A stretch of DNA of 34,834 nucleotides from a virus (taxonomy: Duplodnaviria; Caudoviricetes): positions 1 through 34,834 of IMG/VR virus record IMGVR_UViG_3300033067_001881. One strand, written 5' to 3'. Of the stretch, positions 8,811-34,144 are shown in pieces (the first letter of the stretch is position 1; each line of letters opens with the position of its first letter). The notes under the pieces were generated by a model. It saw only the letters and a list, made by a program, of their open reading frames with translations. It was not told the DNA's origin and did not search any database. A program made the position numbers and the translations under genes.

Positions 8811-8850
8811 GAAAAAGTAAGAAGTCCTTTATTTAAAAAGGACTTCTACT
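8811..8850 (-). terminator. Intrinsic terminator after the 490-aa adhesin gene
   Basis: Inverted repeat AGAAGTCCTTT-N6-AAAGGACTTCT (8820-8847) followed by TACTTTTT on the minus strand. Confidence 0.7.
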
Positions 8851-8927: not shown

Positions 8928-10400
8928 TTATGTACAAGGTAAAGCTATAGAACTACTTCCACTACATGCAATACAACCCGGACAAGTTACTGTTACAGAT
9001 ATTGTTCCTGTTGATGCAGTAGTTGATGTAGGATTTGTAGATGTAGAAGTTAATCCCGGACCTGACCATAAAAATGTAGTACCTACACCACAATCATCGG
9101 GGGAAGCTGTTAACTCTGTACTATTACAAGTAAGAGTAGGTCCACCACCATCACCATTAGTTATTACACCCTCTCCACAAATTTCAGGATCAGATATTAC
9201 TAAAGTATTATAACGGCAACTAGGAAGATCAAAAACTGCTGCACTAGAATTTATAGCAAAATTCTTTGTACCACAACCTGTATTAAAACTTGCACCTATA
9301 GATAATGATCCTTGTTGAGAAGAAGTATGTTCATATTCAACAGGTACTTCATCTATATACGCAACCATATTACCTTTAGCACCATCAAATCTACAACCTA
9401 CCCATTTATTTGTAGTTCTTGTTGAAGTATTTACTTTCATTCCTGCTGTTCCACAAATTACACCTGTACCACAAGGTAGAGTAGCAGGAGAAGATTCTAC
9501 GTGAGCGCACCAAAAAGAAACAAAAACTTTTAATCTTGAATTTGCTGTTTTAGTAGAAGTAACAGTTAACACATAATTCTTTTGATTTGCAGGTGTTGAA
9601 GGAACTCCTGTAGCAAGAAATATTGCTCTTTCAATAGTACATCTTAAAGCTGCTGCATGAGCATTTCCATTAGGGTTTGCTGTATTCCAAATAAGATCAG
9701 GATGAGGACCTGCACAACCACAACAATGTAAAGCAGCAGCAGAAGTTGGAGATACATCAAGATCATAATGAGTTTCTGTACCTGTTCCGTTGTCATAACT
9801 AATTCCTACTGTATAAATATAATCTCCTGTTCCAAGAACACCTACTGCTCCTGTATCATAAGCTTCTACAACTCTGAAATTATTATCTGAACAAATTTCT
9901 TCACTAAATACTAAAAAGTCTGTACCCGGTGGTGTACAATTACCATTAATTGATAATGTTGTTTTTACTAATGGACTTACACTATTATCACAGGTTTCTA
10001 CTGAAAAACAACCATCTGCACCATCTAATCCAAATTTAGCAGAATATTCACAACTTATTTGTTCACAACTTATACCTACTGTTGGTGTATCATTTACACA
10101 AACTGTAAGATCAGAAGTATCTGTACCACAAGAACCAAGAGGGGGATTATATCTGAATACATAATCTCCTTCTACAGCACCTTCAAAATCTATACAAGGA
10201 TTATGTACCATTGTAGAACAAAGTAAGAAAGGCAAAGAGTTTACAGGAGTTATTACAAATCCTGAACCACAATTAAGAAGAAGATTAAAAGGAAAAGATA
10301 AACCTGTTGGTTTATTGATCATAACCCAATATCCTGTTTGATCAGGATCAGGAGTAGATATAGTATTTAATTCTGTTAATAGACATTTTATAACTGGCAT
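8928..10400 (-). CDS. Cys/Gly/Thr-rich virion fibre or adhesin protein (putative fibre tip)
   Basis: 490 aa; N-terminal 'LLTEL...PDQTGYW...GDYVFRY...C' and C-terminal 'PTLTCNSTELTA...FLWSGPG...GTISVTVTC' Ig-like units resembling Bacteroidota surface-adhesin repeats; no signal peptide. Confidence 0.6.
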   Translation of the reverse strand: MPVIKCLLTELNTISTPDPDQTGYWVMINKPTGLSFPFNLLLNCGSGFVITPVNSLPFLLCSTMVHNPCIDFEGAVEGDYVFRYNPPLGSCGTDTSDLTVCVNDTPTVGISCEQISCEYSAKFGLDGADGCFSVETCDNSVSPLVKTTLSINGNCTPPGTDFLVFSEEICSDNNFRVVEAYDTGAVGVLGTGDYIYTVGISYDNGTGTETHYDLDVSPTSAAALHCCGCAGPHPDLIWNTANPNGNAHAAALRCTIERAIFLATGVPSTPANQKNYVLTVTSTKTANSRLKVFVSFWCAHVESSPATLPCGTGVICGTAGMKVNTSTRTTNKWVGCRFDGAKGNMVAYIDEVPVEYEHTSSQQGSLSIGASFNTGCGTKNFAINSSAAVFDLPSCRYNTLVISDPEICGEGVITNGDGGGPTLTCNSTELTASPDDCGVGTTFLWSGPGLTSTSTNPTSTTASTGTISVTVTCPGCIACSGSSSIALPCT

Positions 10401-10417
10401 GTTAATATATTTAAATG

Positions 10418-10446
10418 ATAAAAGAGGGTGTAAAAATACACCCTCT
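10418..10446 (-). terminator. Intrinsic terminator after the 217-aa repeat gene
   Basis: Perfect 10-bp stem AGAGGGTGTA-TTTT-TACACCCTCT (10423-10446) followed by a short T-rich tail. Confidence 0.72.
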
Positions 10447-10464
10447 AGTTTAATTTATTAAACT

Positions 10465-11118
10465 TTAATTACAAAGAGTAATTGATCCACCTGATCCTGC
10501 ATTGAATCCTGCTTCAATAGTCACTTTAAATATTCCACATTCTGTACAATCTGTACAAGTATTACTTGCTCCGGCAGGAGTATAACATATATTGTACCAA
10601 AACTCTTTACCTGAACCACAAGGGAGATCTAATACTCCTGTGGTATAATTTGTACATGCATCAGGATTATCAGGACTTCCTACATTTTTACTAAATGTAA
10701 CTGTTCCACCACCCGGTACATCTGTTCCACCTAGAGCATTATATTCTGTTAATAGGTTAACTGTTGAAGGTGTTTGAGTAGCACAAAAACTTTTTGTTTT
10801 AGTATCTAAAGGTGATACATTAGTGACGTTTAAAGTTACTACTGTAGAACCTCCACAAGTACCTGCTGTTTTATATGTAAACAAATAAGTACCTGCTGAT
10901 GTACCATTTAACTCTACCCATAGATTTGTAGTACAACCACCACCTGTAATCAAAGGTTGAGAGTCATTACCTGCAAGTCCTGTTAGAGTTGTAAAGGTAA
11001 CATTATCACAACTGAAATCAGCAGTAATAGTAGTAGCACCATTGTTAGTACCATAGTACCATTTTCCACCTGTATCTCCCCCTGTTATGAGGGTAAATAA
11101 ATTTACTTTACATCCCAT
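10465..11118 (-). CDS. Two-domain Cys-rich Ig-like repeat protein (putative fibre shaft subunit)
   Basis: 217 aa; two copies of 'VNL(F/L)T....GG....(F/W)(T/Y)..C', ending in NAGSGGSITLCN; resembles repeats of Bacteroidota gliding-motility/T9SS-cargo adhesins. Confidence 0.62.
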   Translation of the reverse strand: MGCKVNLFTLITGGDTGGKWYYGTNNGATTITADFSCDNVTFTTLTGLAGNDSQPLITGGGCTTNLWVELNGTSAGTYLFTYKTAGTCGGSTVVTLNVTNVSPLDTKTKSFCATQTPSTVNLLTEYNALGGTDVPGGGTVTFSKNVGSPDNPDACTNYTTGVLDLPCGSGKEFWYNICYTPAGASNTCTDCTECGIFKVTIEAGFNAGSGGSITLCN

Positions 11119-11138
11119 TGTTTTTTATTTTTAATTTT

Positions 11139-13616
11139 TTAAAATAATAAGTATTGACCCATTTCAACTTTTGCTTGTTTACCTTGATTTATTGTTCCAT
11201 TATCATATTCTATAACAATGTATTCTAAATCTTTATCTGATTCTTTTAAAAATACAGAAGATAAATATGAAGAGTTATTTCCAACTATACCATAGGTTGC
11301 ATTTAAACTTGTATAAGGTCTATAAATACACATCCAAGTAGGATGCAAACTTGCAAGTTCTAAAGCAAAATCACCTTCACTTGATAAAATTATTCCAATA
11401 GGATATTGAATTGCTTCTCCTACTATTTTATATTCTATCAGTTTTTGTGGTGGTTTACAATATGGATTACTTCCTATTTCAGAGAACCAAGTTCTTAAAT
11501 CTTCTCCTGGATGCAATCCTGAACATGCAGTACAAATACTATCTGTACCTGCATTTAACCAAGTCCAATTACATTTAACTGAACCATCAGCAATAGAGGT
11601 ATGGTTTGTATCTTCAAATGCCCATATTTTTACTTTAGGAACATTGTATGTATTGGTTACAGATTCAAGTGTAGTAGCAATGTTCTTAGCTTTTACAGTT
11701 ATTTCAACTTCAAAACTATCATCAGTATCTACTGTACCATCTATATTATAAGTAACAATATTACCTGTTGCAATTGCCCAAGCTTGTTTATTAAACTTCA
11801 ATATCTTTCCTGATAAAGAAGCCAATGATGTTTTATCAAAAACACCTGCTTGCCAATATTGTGAAAATGTAGCACCTGTTAACCAATCATTATCAGTTCC
11901 TACTTTTATGCCACCTACTGTTTTCCAATCTTGTCCAACAAGAACTGTACATGATGCAATGATTGTAGAATCAACTTCAAACTGAATAAGGTATTCATCA
12001 CCATCATCAAGTTCATCCATATTATTCATGAACCCTTTAAAGGATACATCAAATTCACCATTGTTATACAAGTTGCTAACAAATACTTCTGCTGTTATAG
12101 ACATTTCATCATCACAAAACGCAACTTCTCCACCTATACCTGCATAGAAAGCATTGTTTACGGTAATCGTTACAGTAGCAGTAGAAAATAATCCATCACT
12201 ATTTGCAACTTTATAACTGAATGAATCTACCCCTACAAAATTTACATTAGGTGTATAGTAGATTTTACCATTAAGTACAAAAGCAGAACCATTAGAAGGA
12301 TTAGTATTTATCATCAATGTAGCAGGAACAAGATTTGGACCTACATCATTTGCAAGTACATCCATTTCATAATCAAGTTCATCATTACACATTTCATAAA
12401 CATCATCAGTAAGATCTGCTGTTGGGTAACAAGTAAGATCAATTATTACTGTAACTGTTCCTGAATGCTTTCCAAATGAATCACTTACACTCCAATTAAT
12501 ATAATCTACTTGTTGTGTACCACCATTTCTATTATATGTAAGAATATGAGTATAAGGATCAAATACAGCAGTAGCAGGCGCAATTGGACCAGATTCAATA
12601 TTAAAAGTTGACCAATCAACTTCATTAGAATCACAACACTTTGGGGAGATAATGAAATCATCTAAATCAAATTTAATAGGGTCTTGATTACAATATTTAG
12701 CACGAGGATTACATTCTTTTTTTACAATGAATTCACAAGCTTCTGTTTCAAAACATTGTACTTCATGAATAATAAGTTTTGCAATATTAGAAGAAGTACC
12801 ATCAGAATCAATTGCAAAGAATGGGATTATTACAACACCACTTTTAAACAATGACCTTTTTAGATAAAGAAGATTATACTTTTTATCTGTACCTTCTTGT
12901 ACAACAATATCATTATCAGGAAGCATAAATTGAAGCTTCACTATACTTGCATTGTCACAAATTCTAACTATATCTTTTACACTAAATATATCAGAGAATA
13001 AAAGATCTTCACCTTCACCATCTTTAGGATGACAAAAAGATTGTATTTCTACATCACCAAGTTGAGGTCTGCAAAGACCAAAGTTTTGTCGTATTCTTGT
13101 ACTACAACCATTTGTATCTCTTACTACTACAGTAACTTCCATTGTGAAAGTTGCACCATAAACATTTGGTTTAGGTATAAACTTTATAAAATTATTACTT
13201 TGAGGAGAAGAATCATAAGGCTCAAAGAAAAGAGAAGGTCTCATTGACCATTCATAAGTATAAGATCCTGATCCCCCCATTGGTTGAATAGAAAATAAAT
13301 ATGGACTTTCTGAACTTTGTACTATTGGAGAAGTAGAAAAATCTACACAAGGGTCAAGATCAGAAAGTAATATAGTTCTAACACAACCTTCTTTATCTGT
13401 AATTACCAATTCTACATTACAGTTAGTTGCACATGCAGGATCAATATCTTTATCAATATTTACGCTGATATCAATAAGTGCAAAATTATCATTTTCATAC
13501 TTAGTAGCTAATCCTGTAGTTTCAAGAAAAGTTACACAAGGGCAATTATTTACATTTGCCAATGACCAAATATAAGGTCCTTCACCACCATAAACTTTTA
13601 CTGTTAAGTTTTTCAT
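11139..13616 (-). CDS. Multi-Ig-domain virion protein (SprB-like and Big_9/cadherin-like repeats)
   Basis: 825 aa; 'GGEGPYIWS', 'GGSGSYTYEW...VRDTNGC' SprB-like units and 'DVLANDVG...PSNGSA...IYYTPNVNFVGVDSFSYKV' Big_9-like unit. Confidence 0.72.
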   Translation of the reverse strand: MKNLTVKVYGGEGPYIWSLANVNNCPCVTFLETTGLATKYENDNFALIDISVNIDKDIDPACATNCNVELVITDKEGCVRTILLSDLDPCVDFSTSPIVQSSESPYLFSIQPMGGSGSYTYEWSMRPSLFFEPYDSSPQSNNFIKFIPKPNVYGATFTMEVTVVVRDTNGCSTRIRQNFGLCRPQLGDVEIQSFCHPKDGEGEDLLFSDIFSVKDIVRICDNASIVKLQFMLPDNDIVVQEGTDKKYNLLYLKRSLFKSGVVIIPFFAIDSDGTSSNIAKLIIHEVQCFETEACEFIVKKECNPRAKYCNQDPIKFDLDDFIISPKCCDSNEVDWSTFNIESGPIAPATAVFDPYTHILTYNRNGGTQQVDYINWSVSDSFGKHSGTVTVIIDLTCYPTADLTDDVYEMCNDELDYEMDVLANDVGPNLVPATLMINTNPSNGSAFVLNGKIYYTPNVNFVGVDSFSYKVANSDGLFSTATVTITVNNAFYAGIGGEVAFCDDEMSITAEVFVSNLYNNGEFDVSFKGFMNNMDELDDGDEYLIQFEVDSTIIASCTVLVGQDWKTVGGIKVGTDNDWLTGATFSQYWQAGVFDKTSLASLSGKILKFNKQAWAIATGNIVTYNIDGTVDTDDSFEVEITVKAKNIATTLESVTNTYNVPKVKIWAFEDTNHTSIADGSVKCNWTWLNAGTDSICTACSGLHPGEDLRTWFSEIGSNPYCKPPQKLIEYKIVGEAIQYPIGIILSSEGDFALELASLHPTWMCIYRPYTSLNATYGIVGNNSSYLSSVFLKESDKDLEYIVIEYDNGTINQGKQAKVEMGQYLLF

Positions 13617-13619
13617 ATT

Positions 13620-13889
13620 TTAGGTTAATTGAACAGCCATAAATTTAATACAATCTTTTGGTTTTAAATCCTGATCTAAAATAAGATTTGAGCAGTTTAC
13701 AATTTCTGTAGAATTATAAGCATCCAAATCAAAATCTATACAACTTATAGGCTCACAATTTGCTGTTTGCATCCACAAGTTTTTTGCATACTGTACTTGT
13801 AGAGTTTTACTACAAGAAATACCGTACTCTTTTTGAGTAAGGTATTTAACTACTTGTTGAAGCAAAGCACATTTTAACATGTTGTACAA
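13620..13889 (-). CDS. Small virion protein, tail hub B-like
   Basis: 89 aa overlapping the preceding gene; 'YLTQKEYG' helix; size and position match the crAss-like tail hub pair (synteny inference). Confidence 0.45.
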   Translation of the reverse strand: MYNMLKCALLQQVVKYLTQKEYGISCSKTLQVQYAKNLWMQTANCEPISCIDFDLDAYNSTEIVNCSNLILDQDLKPKDCIKFMAVQLT

Positions 13890-15271: not shown

Positions 15272-16651
15272 TTAATCATTAACATTTACTACCTGAAGTG
15301 TATCTGAGTTGTTGTAATAGCTTAACCTGATTGTGTCATCAGCTCTTTTAAATATTGTTTTGGTGTAATCTCCAAATATAATAATAGCTGCACTTATATT
15401 GGAAGATACCTGACAATTTATTATAGAATTTTTTCTTATATTTTTATTGCTTAATGTTCCTGATGTTGCTAACTCTAATACACTTTGTTTCAAGTTATTA
15501 TTAGTAATAGTAGAGTTACTTCCAGTAAAATTTTGAATTGAACTAATTTCTAAATCATTAAATGATATTTGTCCAGAAATAGTCGAAAAAATTATATTAC
15601 TTTGCCTTAAAAAATTATTACAAAGTTGCGAATTTTCAGATAAGATATTACCTCCAATTATCGAATAGTCAAATAATTTATTGTTTATAAAAAAACTGTT
15701 AAAGCTTGTTATATTATTTTTTATTACTGAATTATTATATAAATAATTTCCTGAATTTTCTACTGTTTTAAAATTAACACAATTAAAATAAGAATATACT
15801 ACTGTATTATTCGATGATCCTAAATTACTTTCTCCCAATGGTACTGCAACATAATTCCCATATTGCATTGCAGCAATTGGGTGTATATTACCTTCTGACC
15901 AATTTGCATTATTATTACCTCTCAACTTATAATCAACGTCAATGTTAGCAATTTCATCTCTTCTTCTGGTTATAAAATCATTATCATAGTCATACTCAAT
16001 GTAATCAATAACTTTTTTATAAGCAGAAGTATCAGAGTAAGGTAACTTAACCCAATTAGCTTCCAATTCAAAATCATTTAAAGATCCTGAGCCTTCTCCA
16101 ATACCATGATATTCCCACATATACCCACCCCAAATAGTCCTATCATCATCTTCATAAGTAACAGACTGATCATAAATTCCCCACAATCCTGTTTTATCTG
16201 TATTGTTATAATTACTTACAGGTTGGTACTTTGGATTATAGAATTCACCATAACCGGAGTTTGTAAAAGTGCTTGATGTTAATGCGGTTAAGTAGATGGT
16301 AATGCCTAAATCATTACCATCATCATATAGTTTTTCAATATAAAAGCCAGGTTTATTTTTGTGTACACCTGTTATTTTATAAACTTTACCGGGTTGTAAA
16401 AAAGCATTATTAACTAATGCTTGAAATTGCGTTAATGTTAATGTAATTACATTTTCAGGAATTACTAAAGGTTGCCAACTTACTGATGTTCCATCTGTAA
16501 ATAAAAATGTATCATCATTACCTGATTGATCAGGTAATGCATTAGAAGAAACTGTTACTTCTAAATCATTTACTTTATTAAATAAAGATGAAATCTTTTT
16601 TAAAAGAATCTCATATATATTTTGTGTTTTAGGAAACCAATTTTTTGACAT
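15272..16651 (-). CDS. Fibre/spike protein with C-terminal beta-helix
   Basis: N-terminal coiled coil, 'LPDQSGN...FLFTDGTSVSW' fibre linker, 'LQPGKVYKIT' motif, then Asn/Ser/Ile-rich ~11-residue repeats. Confidence 0.65.
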   Translation of the reverse strand: MSKNWFPKTQNIYEILLKKISSLFNKVNDLEVTVSSNALPDQSGNDDTFLFTDGTSVSWQPLVIPENVITLTLTQFQALVNNAFLQPGKVYKITGVHKNKPGFYIEKLYDDGNDLGITIYLTALTSSTFTNSGYGEFYNPKYQPVSNYNNTDKTGLWGIYDQSVTYEDDDRTIWGGYMWEYHGIGEGSGSLNDFELEANWVKLPYSDTSAYKKVIDYIEYDYDNDFITRRRDEIANIDVDYKLRGNNNANWSEGNIHPIAAMQYGNYVAVPLGESNLGSSNNTVVYSYFNCVNFKTVENSGNYLYNNSVIKNNITSFNSFFINNKLFDYSIIGGNILSENSQLCNNFLRQSNIIFSTISGQISFNDLEISSIQNFTGSNSTITNNNLKQSVLELATSGTLSNKNIRKNSIINCQVSSNISAAIIIFGDYTKTIFKRADDTIRLSYYNNSDTLQVVNVND

Positions 16652-16667
16652 TATAATTTATTTTATA

Positions 16668-16711
16668 TTTTATAATTAATGTACAGGTATTAATAAAAAT
16701 ACCTGTACATT
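16668..16711 (-). terminator. Hairpin, probable terminator
   Basis: 14-bp inverted repeat AATGTACAGGTATT-N6-AATACCTGTACATT (16678-16711) in the intergenic gap; T-tail weak. Confidence 0.55.
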
Positions 16712-16720
16712 TAAAAACAA

Positions 16721-16966
16721 TTAAACTTCTACTTCGGTTGCATCTTCTACTTTTAGTTTCAGTTTATAATCTTCAGTAAGTTCAATAGCATTTTCAATTT
16801 TATTTTTTTGAAGATACTCTGTAATAACTGCATTTTTATACAAAGATAATCCTGTAACCAATCTTTGCAAACTTTCAATTTGTTTTAAAACTTGTGAAGC
16901 TTCTAAATCAGTAACTTTTAAATTTTCTACCAATGTACTTGGTAATTCTAAATACTTGTTTTCCAT
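16721..16966 (-). CDS. Small helical protein, possible tail fibre chaperone
   Basis: 81 aa, coiled-coil-like, directly downstream of the tail fibre gene. Confidence 0.45.
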   Translation of the reverse strand: MENKYLELPSTLVENLKVTDLEASQVLKQIESLQRLVTGLSLYKNAVITEYLQKNKIENAIELTEDYKLKLKVEDATEVEV

Positions 16967-17007
16967 TTTTTTGATATGTTTATTTGTTAAAAAATATAAA
17001 ATAATTA

Positions 17008-19260
17008 TTAATATAAATTATTCCATGTGGCACCATCCCAACATTGAAGTTTTTTAGATACTGTTTCAAATATTACCATACCTTGATCTGTACTAGCCCA
17101 TGCTACAGCGTCTCTTTCAGTAGCTGTCATTCGAGGAGGCATAAATCCTCTAGTGGTTGTATTAAGACTTAATATTGCTCTAGGATTAGTCGCAGTAGCA
17201 AATCCTATTTGTACATTTGAGCCTGTTTCTGCGGTAGTATTTCCTGTTAGAGAAGTAGTAGTGTTATTAACTCTAGATCCGATTATTATATCATAATTTT
17301 GAGCTTTTGTAGTTCCTTCAGACCATCCATCTATATAAGATAATCCACTAGTAGTGCCTAATAGTCTTAATCCTTCTGAGTTAGTAGCAAAGCCACAAAT
17401 ATTTACTAACCCATATGATCCACCTTGAGTTAATTCTAAAAGAGTTCCACCATCAATAGAGCGGTTTAGTTTTATACCATTAGCTTGATCATTTATTCCT
17501 CCAAGGACAAGTGCTTTTGCGCTTAATGTTGCAAATCCGCTATCATCTGCTAATCTTACGTCTAAGCCTGTTCCGTTTCTTTTTAATGCTGGGAATGAAG
17601 ATGTAGTACCTCCGAATGAAGTTAAGTCTGTTGATAATATAGTTTTTCCACTCGTAAACTCTAAGGCTATGTGATTAACTCCTGTAGTAGATGTTAAAAT
17701 TGGATCATAATAAATTCCACGTACTATACCACTGTATGATCCTGATGTATTAATTTGTTGTCTAATTAATAATGAGTTAAAAGTTGCAGTACCTGTAGCT
17801 GGCCTAAAGTCTATGTATTGATTTGCAACAGCATTACCTATAGCTACCATATTGTATACTCCAGAAGTCATAGTAAGACCACCTGCTCCAGTAAGAGCTG
17901 TAGAAGACAATACAATAGCATCACCAGCTGTACTATTTATATTTCCTAATAACCTTATAAAACTTGAAGCTGTCTGTTGCTGTATAGTATGTATAACATT
18001 TAAAAATAATATGTTACCACCTGGATGTACAGACAGTGTACCTAATCCTAGTCTAATTAAAGGATTATCTGCTGTATTAAATCCTATTGAAATTGAATTA
18101 CCTGTTGTTTTAGTAATTAAAATTCTATTGTTTTCATCGATACCATTAAGTGTTAGATTTCCACCAGTAATAGATGCTTTACTTGCACCATTAACTTGTA
18201 AATCCATCAGTCTTCCCACAAAACCTGTTTCAGCATTAACGCCTAATTTAGTCCCGCTCGTACTCCAACCCGTTGATGTCGTTCCCGTTGGTTCGATTAG
18301 TAACGTTGGTTTTGTTGTTGTGGAAGTACCGCCCGAGAAGCCTGTTCCGCTTAACCACATACTTGGCGTGGATGCAGTCGTTGCAATTGCGTTGTGGATT
18401 CCTGCAATTGGCGTTGACACATTTAGTCCAAGTAGTCCAGTGCTATTAATTGTAAGAAGGTCACTTCCGTAGTTGTGTGTAATATGGAATCCTGATTCTG
18501 CGCCATTAGTAGAAAAATTAATGTATGCGCCACCACCAGCAGATGGAAGCAAACTGCCGAATGTAGACTTTGATCCTAAAGATGTTGATCCAAAAGATGC
18601 TCCATTTGGCACACCCGAACTATAAGGGCCAGAGTTCGAGTGCATTGCCATTGAAACGGATTGAGACACGCAAGCTGCTTTAGTTATGCCGTTTGATGGC
18701 GTTACACGGAAATTTCCATCAGTGGTTTCTACGCTTAAAGTTAAATTCCCATTTATAGGTTGTGACACTGTTGTTAGTCCATCATTTCTAACAGTCATTA
18801 AAGTAGTTCCAGAACTATTCCTAACTCTCAAAGCATTGGTAGCGCTTGTAGCGCCTGAACCTTGTATATCTAAAGTATTGGTAGTTCCGATATTAGCTAT
18901 AAGTTGAGAGCTTCCTGCAAATGCTCCTGCATTATTGTATTGTATTTCTCCATTTGATCCACCCGGAGTAACAGAAGCATCTACTAAATCAGATAAGTCT
19001 ACATCAAAAGTAGTATTATCTGACATAGTCAAAGTAAGTACATTAGTTGTATTATTATAGGATGCTTGTGAAAGAAACTGTTCAAGTGGTAAATTTACAG
19101 TAGTTTCTACACCATTTTGATCTGTAAGAGTTAATTCTCCTGTAGTACCATTGTATGACATCATTACAGGAGAATCCATATATGTACCCATACAACAGAG
19201 TTTATCTTCTGTTTTTTGAATCCAATCACGAAGATTAAAATTATAAGGTAATGTACTCAT
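17008..19260 (-). CDS. Tail fibre / receptor-binding protein
   Basis: 750 aa Gly/Thr/Ser-rich; 'TPGGSNGEIQYNNAGAFAG' fibre motif; C-terminal 'RGFMPPRMTATERDA...GMVIFET..KKLQCWDGATW' module common in Bacteroidota and phage fibres. Confidence 0.8.
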   Translation of the reverse strand: MSTLPYNFNLRDWIQKTEDKLCCMGTYMDSPVMMSYNGTTGELTLTDQNGVETTVNLPLEQFLSQASYNNTTNVLTLTMSDNTTFDVDLSDLVDASVTPGGSNGEIQYNNAGAFAGSSQLIANIGTTNTLDIQGSGATSATNALRVRNSSGTTLMTVRNDGLTTVSQPINGNLTLSVETTDGNFRVTPSNGITKAACVSQSVSMAMHSNSGPYSSGVPNGASFGSTSLGSKSTFGSLLPSAGGGAYINFSTNGAESGFHITHNYGSDLLTINSTGLLGLNVSTPIAGIHNAIATTASTPSMWLSGTGFSGGTSTTTKPTLLIEPTGTTSTGWSTSGTKLGVNAETGFVGRLMDLQVNGASKASITGGNLTLNGIDENNRILITKTTGNSISIGFNTADNPLIRLGLGTLSVHPGGNILFLNVIHTIQQQTASSFIRLLGNINSTAGDAIVLSSTALTGAGGLTMTSGVYNMVAIGNAVANQYIDFRPATGTATFNSLLIRQQINTSGSYSGIVRGIYYDPILTSTTGVNHIALEFTSGKTILSTDLTSFGGTTSSFPALKRNGTGLDVRLADDSGFATLSAKALVLGGINDQANGIKLNRSIDGGTLLELTQGGSYGLVNICGFATNSEGLRLLGTTSGLSYIDGWSEGTTKAQNYDIIIGSRVNNTTTSLTGNTTAETGSNVQIGFATATNPRAILSLNTTTRGFMPPRMTATERDAVAWASTDQGMVIFETVSKKLQCWDGATWNNLY

Positions 19261-19849: not shown

Positions 19850-19883
19850 AATAAAATACAGAGGGGAAAAGTTCCCCCTCTGT
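19850..19883 (-). terminator. Intrinsic terminator after auxiliary capsid gene
   Basis: ACAGAGGGG(GAACTTTT)CCCCTCTGT followed by ATTTTATT on the minus strand. Confidence 0.75.
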
Positions 19884-22643: not shown

Positions 22644-22676
22644 ATTTAAATAAAGGGGGCAACGAATCACCCCCTT
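22644..22676 (-). terminator. Intrinsic terminator after major capsid gene
   Basis: AAGGGGGTGA-TTCG-TTGCCCCCTT followed by TATTT. Confidence 0.78.
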
Positions 22677-33170: not shown

Positions 33171-33734
33171 TTAGGAGTTTTCATTTTTATACATTGGGAT
33201 TATTTTTGCACCTTGACAAACATCACAAACTACAGAAGTTACTGATGAAATTCCATCATCTGATACTCTACCCTTACCAAGACATATTGGACATTGTTGA
33301 TAAGGTATAAAATTAATAATAGATGATTCTTCAGGTACATCTACTACTTCTGCTTTTGAACGAACTTTAATAAAATTTTTTATGAGTTCATCTATACTTT
33401 TATTATAAGCTTCCTGATTTTCTTCATTTTTAGTTGCTTTTCCAATCCATTCTTTATTAAATTTCATTCTAAAGGTATTACCATGTATTCCGGGTTTAGA
33501 TAGTGTTTGTTTTTCATCTTCTGCTTTTGGAGGAATAAAATCGGCTAAATATGTATCTATACACAACCCTCTTTTATATAAGACTTCTTTTAAAGTAGGT
33601 GGAGTATTAAATACATCATTTGTTTCATATTTACCCCACTTAGCAATATATTCATCGTTTGTCAGCATATCCTGATCATTAATAAATTCATCACGTTTAT
33701 CAAGTGGTAGTAGAAAGTATAATCTTATTTTCAT
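33171..33734 (-). CDS. Hypothetical protein with C-terminal DnaJ-type Zn finger
   Basis: 'CPICLGKG...CDVCQGAK' CxxCxGxG-type pair. Confidence 0.65.
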   Translation of the reverse strand: MKIRLYFLLPLDKRDEFINDQDMLTNDEYIAKWGKYETNDVFNTPPTLKEVLYKRGLCIDTYLADFIPPKAEDEKQTLSKPGIHGNTFRMKFNKEWIGKATKNEENQEAYNKSIDELIKNFIKVRSKAEVVDVPEESSIINFIPYQQCPICLGKGRVSDDGISSVTSVVCDVCQGAKIIPMYKNENS

Positions 33735-34144
33735 TATATTTGATTTTTAAAATTTTCTAATAAATTTTTAATATTATCAGCTCCTACAGGATTAGCAGAA
33801 TGTACATAGTATTCAGGTAAATCTAAGTCATGATTCATGCAATATTCAACTAACCAATTAGCACAATCTTTACCTGTCTTTTCTGTATAATTTTGAGCAT
33901 CTTGATATTCCTTACTTAATTGGTAATCATGCCAATATTCTTCAGGTGTATAATGTTCATGTGCTAAATCATGGTCAAAAGATATAACTTCAGATAGACC
34001 ATTTTTTGTTATCCATTGGGTAAACTCATCATAATTCCTTACCCAAATTATTTCAGTATTTATAGGTGGTACTTTATTTTCAAGATTAAGAAAAGGATTT
34101 CTTAAATCATCTAACCACAATAATTTTATTTTACCAAAATTCAT
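33734..34144 (-). CDS. Cyclic-phosphate-processing receiver-domain (cREC-like) protein
   Basis: 'LWLDDLR', 'ISFDHDL', 'TGKDCANWL', 'VHSANPVGA' motifs. Confidence 0.8.
   Translation of the reverse strand: MNFGKIKLLWLDDLRNPFLNLENKVPPINTEIIWVRNYDEFTQWITKNGLSEVISFDHDLAHEHYTPEEYWHDYQLSKEYQDAQNYTEKTGKDCANWLVEYCMNHDLDLPEYYVHSANPVGADNIKNLLENFKNQI

Follow-up and report, generated by a model that had tools for sequence, protein, structure and literature searches.

In chaperone–usher pili (Fim/Pap), an N-terminal donor strand takes the place of strand G in an immunoglobulin (Ig) fold that is completed in trans, and a chaperone and an usher are required. In the type V pili of Bacteroidota (FimA and Mfa1; PMC13655056), each subunit is expected to be completed by a C-terminal strand of its neighbour. 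Among phages, the C-terminal extension of BppU of Lactococcus phage Tuc2009 completes the β-sandwich of BppA (PMC4742702). In GhpA, a type IX secretion system (T9SS) adhesin of Aureispira solved by cryo-EM (PDB 9FLP/9FLY; bioRxiv 10.1101/2024.01.29.577165), disulfides link neighbouring Ig domains, and Cys2988–Cys3140 is the bond named. The hubs of crAss001 hold trimeric gp22 fibres and its virion contains inter-subunit disulfides, an Ig-chain fibre not being described in the part of that source available (PMC10172136). Here we describe three genes encoding proteins of 825, 217 and 490 amino acids (aa), hereafter base, shaft and tip, on the minus strand of a 34,834-nucleotide stretch of a crAss-like phage (Duplodnaviria; Caudoviricetes; IMG/VR record IMGVR_UViG_3300033067_001881), the whole of which we call the window.

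The trio carries a single Ig repeat of Bacteroidota adhesins that is severed behind its first strand. Our preferred reading of the sequences, which we hold with even confidence, is that the three products would build an ordered, donor-strand-complemented virion fibre with disulfide-closed joints. The three-part joint from base through shaft to tip, whether it serves an ordered chain or a polymer, we regard as probable. The phage proteins belong to the same repeat family as the GhpA-type Bacteroidota T9SS adhesins and have the same two cysteine positions. Whereas those adhesins carry whole repeats in one secreted chain with a signal peptide and a T9SS tail, the phage proteins have the repeat divided by gene boundaries and carry neither export signal. 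With type V pili, the trio shares a C-terminal donor strand and a row of anchor, stalk and tip genes; unlike those pilins, its proteins have neither a lipoprotein signal nor a protease-removed N-terminal strand, that strand being absent from the gene itself. They differ further in their virion context and predicted disulfide locks, and no FimA/Mfa1 pilin fold or family was among the Pfam, Foldseek or VIA matches listed. The Ig fold completed in trans recalls chaperone–usher pili, whose single-copy adaptors FimF–FimG–FimH resemble a chain of shaft paralogues in a related phage (see below), but the phage spare strand is C-terminal and replaces strand A, strand G being present, and no chaperone or usher gene was found among the 34 window proteins scanned. 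The nearest phage precedent is the BppU–BppA pair, in which the C-terminus of a virion protein also completes the product of the next gene, although that joint is a single hairpin, neither repeated nor chained, and unrelated in sequence. The phage has the virion plan of crAss001 [major capsid protein (MCP), portal, rings and muzzle] and would share disulfide-stabilized appendages with it. No description of a phage fibre of this kind was found in the literature searched, which was incomplete and covered subscription journals thinly. The new elements here are conservation across the family, a base gene whose end coincides with the strand, a chain of three paralogues and a disulfide map based on GhpA.

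A search of representative proteins with the 217-aa protein gave nine matches, including three T9SS proteins and one full-length 213-aa homologue; four of the nine were set aside, P0006 and P0011 looking like unrelated ubiquitin-type repeats and P0007 and P0009 being other repeats. A genome scan with a homologue yielded 12 Bacteroidota loci, and no locus was retrieved directly with the 217-, 825- or 426-aa protein. We built a host profile of 82 positions from 66 repeat units of 14 Bacteroidota T9SS adhesin proteins; it matched GhpA with an E value of 1e-61. The host repeat runs showed a clear register: 26/27 opened with the Cys-ended strand AG-x8-C, the domain in front of it being unrelated. 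All runs except one, which was cut by the locus end, finished at the last strand, and in L026 and L030 the T9SS sorting domain follows immediately. Because the runs begin with AG-x8-C and finish at the last strand, AG-x8-C is strand A, in agreement with the original prediction. The sizes and positions of the three open reading frames (ORFs) and of the two terminal-type strands that it quoted were also correct.

Against this register, residues 5–33 of the 217-aa protein matched profile positions 19–47 (14.9 bits) and residues 58–98 matched positions 41–81 (20.9 bits), the best of 500 shuffles reaching 8.3 bits. The cleanest homologue (P0037) ran through the profile from 18 to 81, then from 3 to 82, and then from 2 to 14. 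The second domain of the 217-aa protein gave no hit on its own with the host hidden Markov model and was placed by a 44-row alignment and an AlphaFold model. This alignment combined the 217-aa family with 14 host rows cut in the permuted register, and the host stretches, opening with strand B of unit n and closing with strand A of unit n+2, aligned end to end with the family, W20, C88, C112, C188 and C216 being invariant in 44/44 rows. The 217-aa protein is a repeat begun at strand B, followed by one whole domain and a spare strand A at its end. That end, NAGSGGSITLCN, lies at 10468–10503, immediately before the stop, and ranked first among 9,480 positions in 24 window proteins scanned with a first-strand matrix made from 30 host 12-mers. 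Scanning DNA for a motif made up of the terminal strand and a stop produced 17 matches, of which none lay at the end of a fitting ORF. We collected 32 family proteins, many of them close kin (about a dozen clusters at 90%). All start with M-x?-C and have their first tryptophan at residues 18–21, and all retain G-x7-C no more than seven residues from the stop (no more than six in 30/32), so the terminal motif is conserved in homologues.

The AlphaFold model from the 44-row alignment [mean predicted local distance difference test (pLDDT) 78, predicted template modelling score (pTM) 0.62] opens domain 1 with a strand at residues 4–6, places the first strand of domain 2 at residues 107–112 and leaves residues 203–217 unpaired. 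Domain 1, which starts at strand B in this model, is not a complete Ig unit there, and the tail does not fold back within the chain. A single-sequence model (pLDDT 35) was discarded. Structural searches returned GhpA as the top Foldseek hit [E 1e-4, template modelling (TM) score 0.32], and VIA aligned the whole of domain 2 with a cadherin/PKD-type domain (Z 7.0, root-mean-square deviation 3.2, 91 residues), with no match of Z at least 8 and domain 1 barely probed. Shaft and tip matched no Pfam or PHROG family. Together the trio carries the motifs of GhpA-type repeats, namely LF-x-L, G-x-W, G-x-Y-x-F-x-Y, the F–G-loop Cys and the strand-A Cys. Neither CHU_C nor Por_Secre_tail was hit in the three proteins, both being present in the host controls. 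The claim that signal peptides are missing holds in so far as none was seen by inspection and by a weak hydrophobicity proxy, which was low.

The 490-aa tip matched the host profile with residues 65–102 at positions 44–81 (17.0 bits, compared with 8.6 bits in 500 shuffles), and its best first-strand position scored only 3.0 bits, i.e. it has no spare strand. Nine acceptor N-termini from three phages share one register, with G23, W25, G78 and C91 invariant in 9/9, and hhalign aligns them with the host repeat beginning at strand B (95.5%). Thus headless starts are found on shaft and tip and spare strands on base and shaft: an acceptor domain lacks one strand of its fold, and its partner keeps a conserved spare terminal strand. 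The last domain of the tip is presumably PKD-like, judging from its motif; in position, this domain (window 8937–9179, minus strand) corresponds to a separate 195-aa gene in the relative L020 (13296–13883). A YNTLV motif common to the window and L020 tips lies immediately ahead of this point.

Base, shaft and tip sets were found at two further loci, L019 and L020 (L020 and L021 are the same phage, 99.9%). The virion genes of L019 have open frames when TGA is read as Trp; reading TAG as Gln left the frames closed and was rejected. The 491-aa base gene of L019 stops one residue past the donor-strand Cys and is followed by genes for a 230-aa acceptor-only protein, a 207-aa shaft and a 745-aa tip that contains additional repeats. 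The 230-aa protein (9292–9984) may be an alternative cap. Its terminal domain resembles one that precedes the repeats in host locus L030. In L020, a base with an internal strand and a window-like extension, which has no Cys downstream of the donor Cys, precedes three tandem shaft paralogues (211, 226 and 219 aa) and a 424-aa acceptor-only tip. The paralogue tails are distinct (GDAGDAQDGVVC, ISAGSNQEFMYC and PFTGYDCEESVC), and the second- and third-type paralogues (S2 and S3) fall into starred clades with homologues from other contigs and with tail motifs of their own. Matching lengths of the longest contigs suggest that pairs of paralogues lie on shared contigs elsewhere as well. Donors and acceptors number 2:2 in the window, 4:4 in L020 and 2:3 in L019.

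We next considered how the joints might be closed. The alignment envelopes on GhpA end at 2989, 3086 and 3168, so that Cys2988 ends strand A of domain n and Cys3140 is the F–G-loop Cys of domain n+1. If the GhpA rule carries over, the strand-A Cys of one domain would bond the F–G-loop Cys of the next, and the four invariant cysteines of the 217-aa protein, which by this analysis would find no partner inside one chain, are predicted to give two inter-subunit disulfides per joint. In general, the partner of C216 would be C188 (or C191) in the acceptor subunit, and that of C112 would be either C88 in the next subunit or C91 in the tip. For base and shaft the predicted bonds are C410–C88 and C501–C188 (or C191), and for shaft and tip C112–C91. 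The base carries both matching residues, C410 and C501, which are invariant in 3/3 bases; in the L020 base no Cys follows the donor Cys, which therefore lacks a partner further along the same chain. The disulfides would form after lysis, when the virion is exposed to oxygen. The cysteine lock of the original prediction thus gains support from the GhpA mapping and the invariant residues, as a prediction.

In the proposed fibre, two strand-A grooves would be filled, the one in shaft domain 1 by the base strand (residues 491–501) and the one in the first domain of the tip by the shaft tail (residues 205–216), giving the order base, shaft, tip. Because L020 has three divergent paralogues with donors of their own, and donors equal acceptors in L020 and the window, we favour an ordered chain of a fixed length that would depend mainly on how many shaft genes are present (one in the window, three in L020); the variable tip and the base extension would bind the host surface. 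Several points weigh against this arrangement. The independent loci number three, and in one of them, L019, two donors face three acceptors, so that strict gene-order pairing fails there; two alternative caps sharing one base would give this count as well. The base strand matches the host G-to-A junction weakly (hhalign E 7e-4, probability 26%), ranks only fourth of the 9,480 matrix positions, and precedes 323 residues of the same chain, which it could serve itself. The permuted cut of the 14 host rows biases the AlphaFold model towards a free tail, and the GhpA cysteine mapping was taken from alignment envelopes, not coordinates, with one named bond.

The same joint would also allow the 217-aa protein to accept its own tail, giving a many-copy pilus-like filament from base to tip. 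Base and shaft strands are alike in the window (AG-x-GG-x-hydrophobic-x-hydrophobic-C), so that both might fit the same groove. A strong terminator-like hairpin lies behind the shaft gene, as one does behind the major capsid gene, and the L019 acceptors exceed the donors by one. Such a hairpin is, however, absent after the shaft genes of L019 and L020, three divergent paralogues with distinct tails are retained in L020, and no chaperone or length ruler was recognized in the window. Nor is the codon bias of the shaft gene clearly capsid-like (C at two-fold pyrimidine codons 0.18, n=45, compared with 0.28, n=116, for the capsid gene). A many-copy filament therefore seems to us the less likely outcome, if a serious one, and the same doubtful standing applies to its fullest form, in which the 217-aa protein would be a true phage pilin that self-polymerizes in the cytoplasm without chaperone or protease, runs from a tail-anchored base to an adhesin tip and acquires two disulfides per joint after lysis. 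Of the pilus-like fibre originally predicted, circular permutation across genes (seen in the profile register, the 44-row alignment and the headless starts), the donor and acceptor anatomy and the lock have stood, and a self-polymerizing shaft has not gone beyond plausibility: donors match acceptors one to one in the window and L020, and L020 lengthens through divergent paralogues.

The shaft–tip joint could be real without the base being a donor, its strand serving its own extension or being a relic, and the shaft being anchored by another protein or closing into a ring. The strand is internal in 2/3 bases, its motif score is modest, and the donor search covered the window record, 34.8 kb (~37% complete) of a full genome of ~90 kb. 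Positions outscoring it include one in the muzzle and an unconserved look-alike at base residue 687, which we rejected as a donor, its Cys being absent in L020. Yet the base of L019 has the strand at its end, both C410 and C501 are invariant, no Cys occurs in the extension of L020, and no other donor was found within the window, so that we consider this account improbable. We give hardly more weight to the proposal that there is no complementation and that domain 1 is a stable six-strand variant, with an insertion or the folded-back tail in its groove, the products being ordinary Ig-chain decoration proteins. Domain 1 does carry a phage-specific insertion of 25–35 residues with extra strands and was modelled without a partner at pLDDT ~80, but the 230-aa acceptor of L019, which has no insertion, is cut at the same place, tail and Cys are kept in 32/32 proteins, and the model shows no fold-back. 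On geometric grounds, folding back would also require two sharp bends, as opposed to the straight, disulfide-braced junctions of GhpA.

The coordinates of the features are collected in Table 1.

Table 1 Features of the fibre locus in the window
Feature	Position	Strand	Basis
490-aa tip: headless acceptor domain, variable middle, presumably PKD-like last domain, no spare strand	8928–10400	-	Profile and strand matrix
Tip headless acceptor domain (aa 1–104), C91 in F–G loop	10089–10400	-	Acceptor alignment; hhalign
Terminator-like 10-bp hairpin plus T tract between shaft and tip genes	10423–10446	-	z -5.9, 0/200 shuffles
217-aa shaft-type subunit: headless domain, whole domain, spare strand	10465–11118	-	Profile, alignment, AlphaFold model, family conservation
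Putative terminal donor strand FNAGSGGSITLC (C216)	10471–10506	-	Strand matrix top rank; family-wide terminal G-x7-C
Complete Ig-like domain 2 (aa 101–204); C112, C188-x-x-C191	10507–10818	-	Model; VIA structural match
Headless acceptor domain 1 (aa 1–100), strands B–G, phage-specific insertion; C3, C88	10819–11118	-	Profile, model, acceptor alignments
825-aa base: SprB/PKD-like and cadherin-like Ig domains, Big_9, donor strand, 323-aa C-terminal extension	11139–13616	-	Homologues in L020 (859 aa, 30%) and L019 (491 aa, 25%)
Base C-terminal extension (aa 503–825), not repeat body	11142–12110	-	Present in L020, absent in L019
Putative base donor strand YAGIGGEVAFC (aa 491–501, C501)	12114–12146	-	A492, G493 and C501 invariant in 3/3 bases
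Big_9 domain (aa 404–485), C410 at first-strand end	12162–12407	-	PF17963 E 6e-13; C410 in 3/3 bases; predicted partner shaft C88
Small Cys-rich gene upstream of base, possible attachment point	13620–13889	-	Tail-hub-B position by synteny only; no match to crAss001 gp39

The window spans the phage's virion region, in which MCP, portal, terminase, several ring proteins and a muzzle were recognized. The Pfam scan gave PF23898, PF24228, PF25702 and PF25731 above the cut-off and PF25710 below it, and PHROG matched the portal and TerL. The nearest cultured MCP is that of Flavobacterium phage FpV4 (43%), which at the corresponding position has neither the gene trio, nor similar-sized genes, nor any match. 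The trio lies between capsid and ring genes, and this position, the missing export signals and the homology to adhesin stalks point to a virion appendage; judging from gene position only, it would be attached to the tail collar. Upstream lies a 298/89-aa pair, which agrees with tail hub A/B in its synteny with the crAss001 hub genes and in its Cys-rich ends. It matches neither the crAss001 hub proteins (hhalign probabilities 0.4 and 0.1%) nor any PDB entry, so that calling it tail-hub-like, as had been done, is a statement of synteny which the sequences do not confirm. The small gene before the base encodes a C-terminal P-x-x-C and a hydrophobic strand at 3/3 loci (window 13620–13700, minus strand; L019 7730–7860; L020 7330–7460), and the first SprB/PKD-like domain of the base lacks the leading strand that is present in its second domain (window 13560–13616, minus strand). 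The strand of the small protein and this headless-looking domain could possibly form a second donor joint that ties the fibre to the tail.

An independent contig (run X2) covers the trio stretch with five substitutions, none of them in the 217-aa gene, and no indels. Of the four coding differences in runs X2/X3, three are nonsynonymous (window 9185, 10037 and 13558), giving tip E406K, tip K122E and base A20V, with none in the shaft gene. The base extension had no host-repeat match and no usable Atlas match, and of the seven loci retrieved with a base profile, six (L036–L041) matched through Big_9-type domains only, without such a gene set. The four strongest terminator-like hairpins on the minus strand of the window follow the capsid gene (22653–22676), a 364-aa gene (19858–19883), the shaft gene and the tip gene (8820–8847). 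Two orphan genes of 459 and 750 aa (15272–19260, minus strand), with β-rich repeats and no family match, probably encode conventional fibre or spike proteins. Upstream of the terminase, at 33734–34144 (minus strand), is a cyclic-phosphate processing receiver domain (PF20274, E 2e-23).

Known podophage fibres are mostly trimers, or dimers on a rope. If the proposed fibre is real, its chain of Ig-like monomers, linked through donated strands, would represent a distinct principle of appendage construction in virions. It would also show that a single step, in which a gene boundary comes to lie within the A–B loop of a host repeat, can give rise to a pilus-type joint. Should the 217-aa protein instead prove to be a true pilin, the virion would carry a covalent pilus derived from a host adhesin repeat cut once. 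A 12-residue tag that docks into a 100-residue domain with a disulfide cross-link would also be an easily tested protein connector. Such joints would allow the fibre to lengthen by gene duplication and its tip to be swapped gene by gene, the latter bearing on host range in aquatic Bacteroidota phages.

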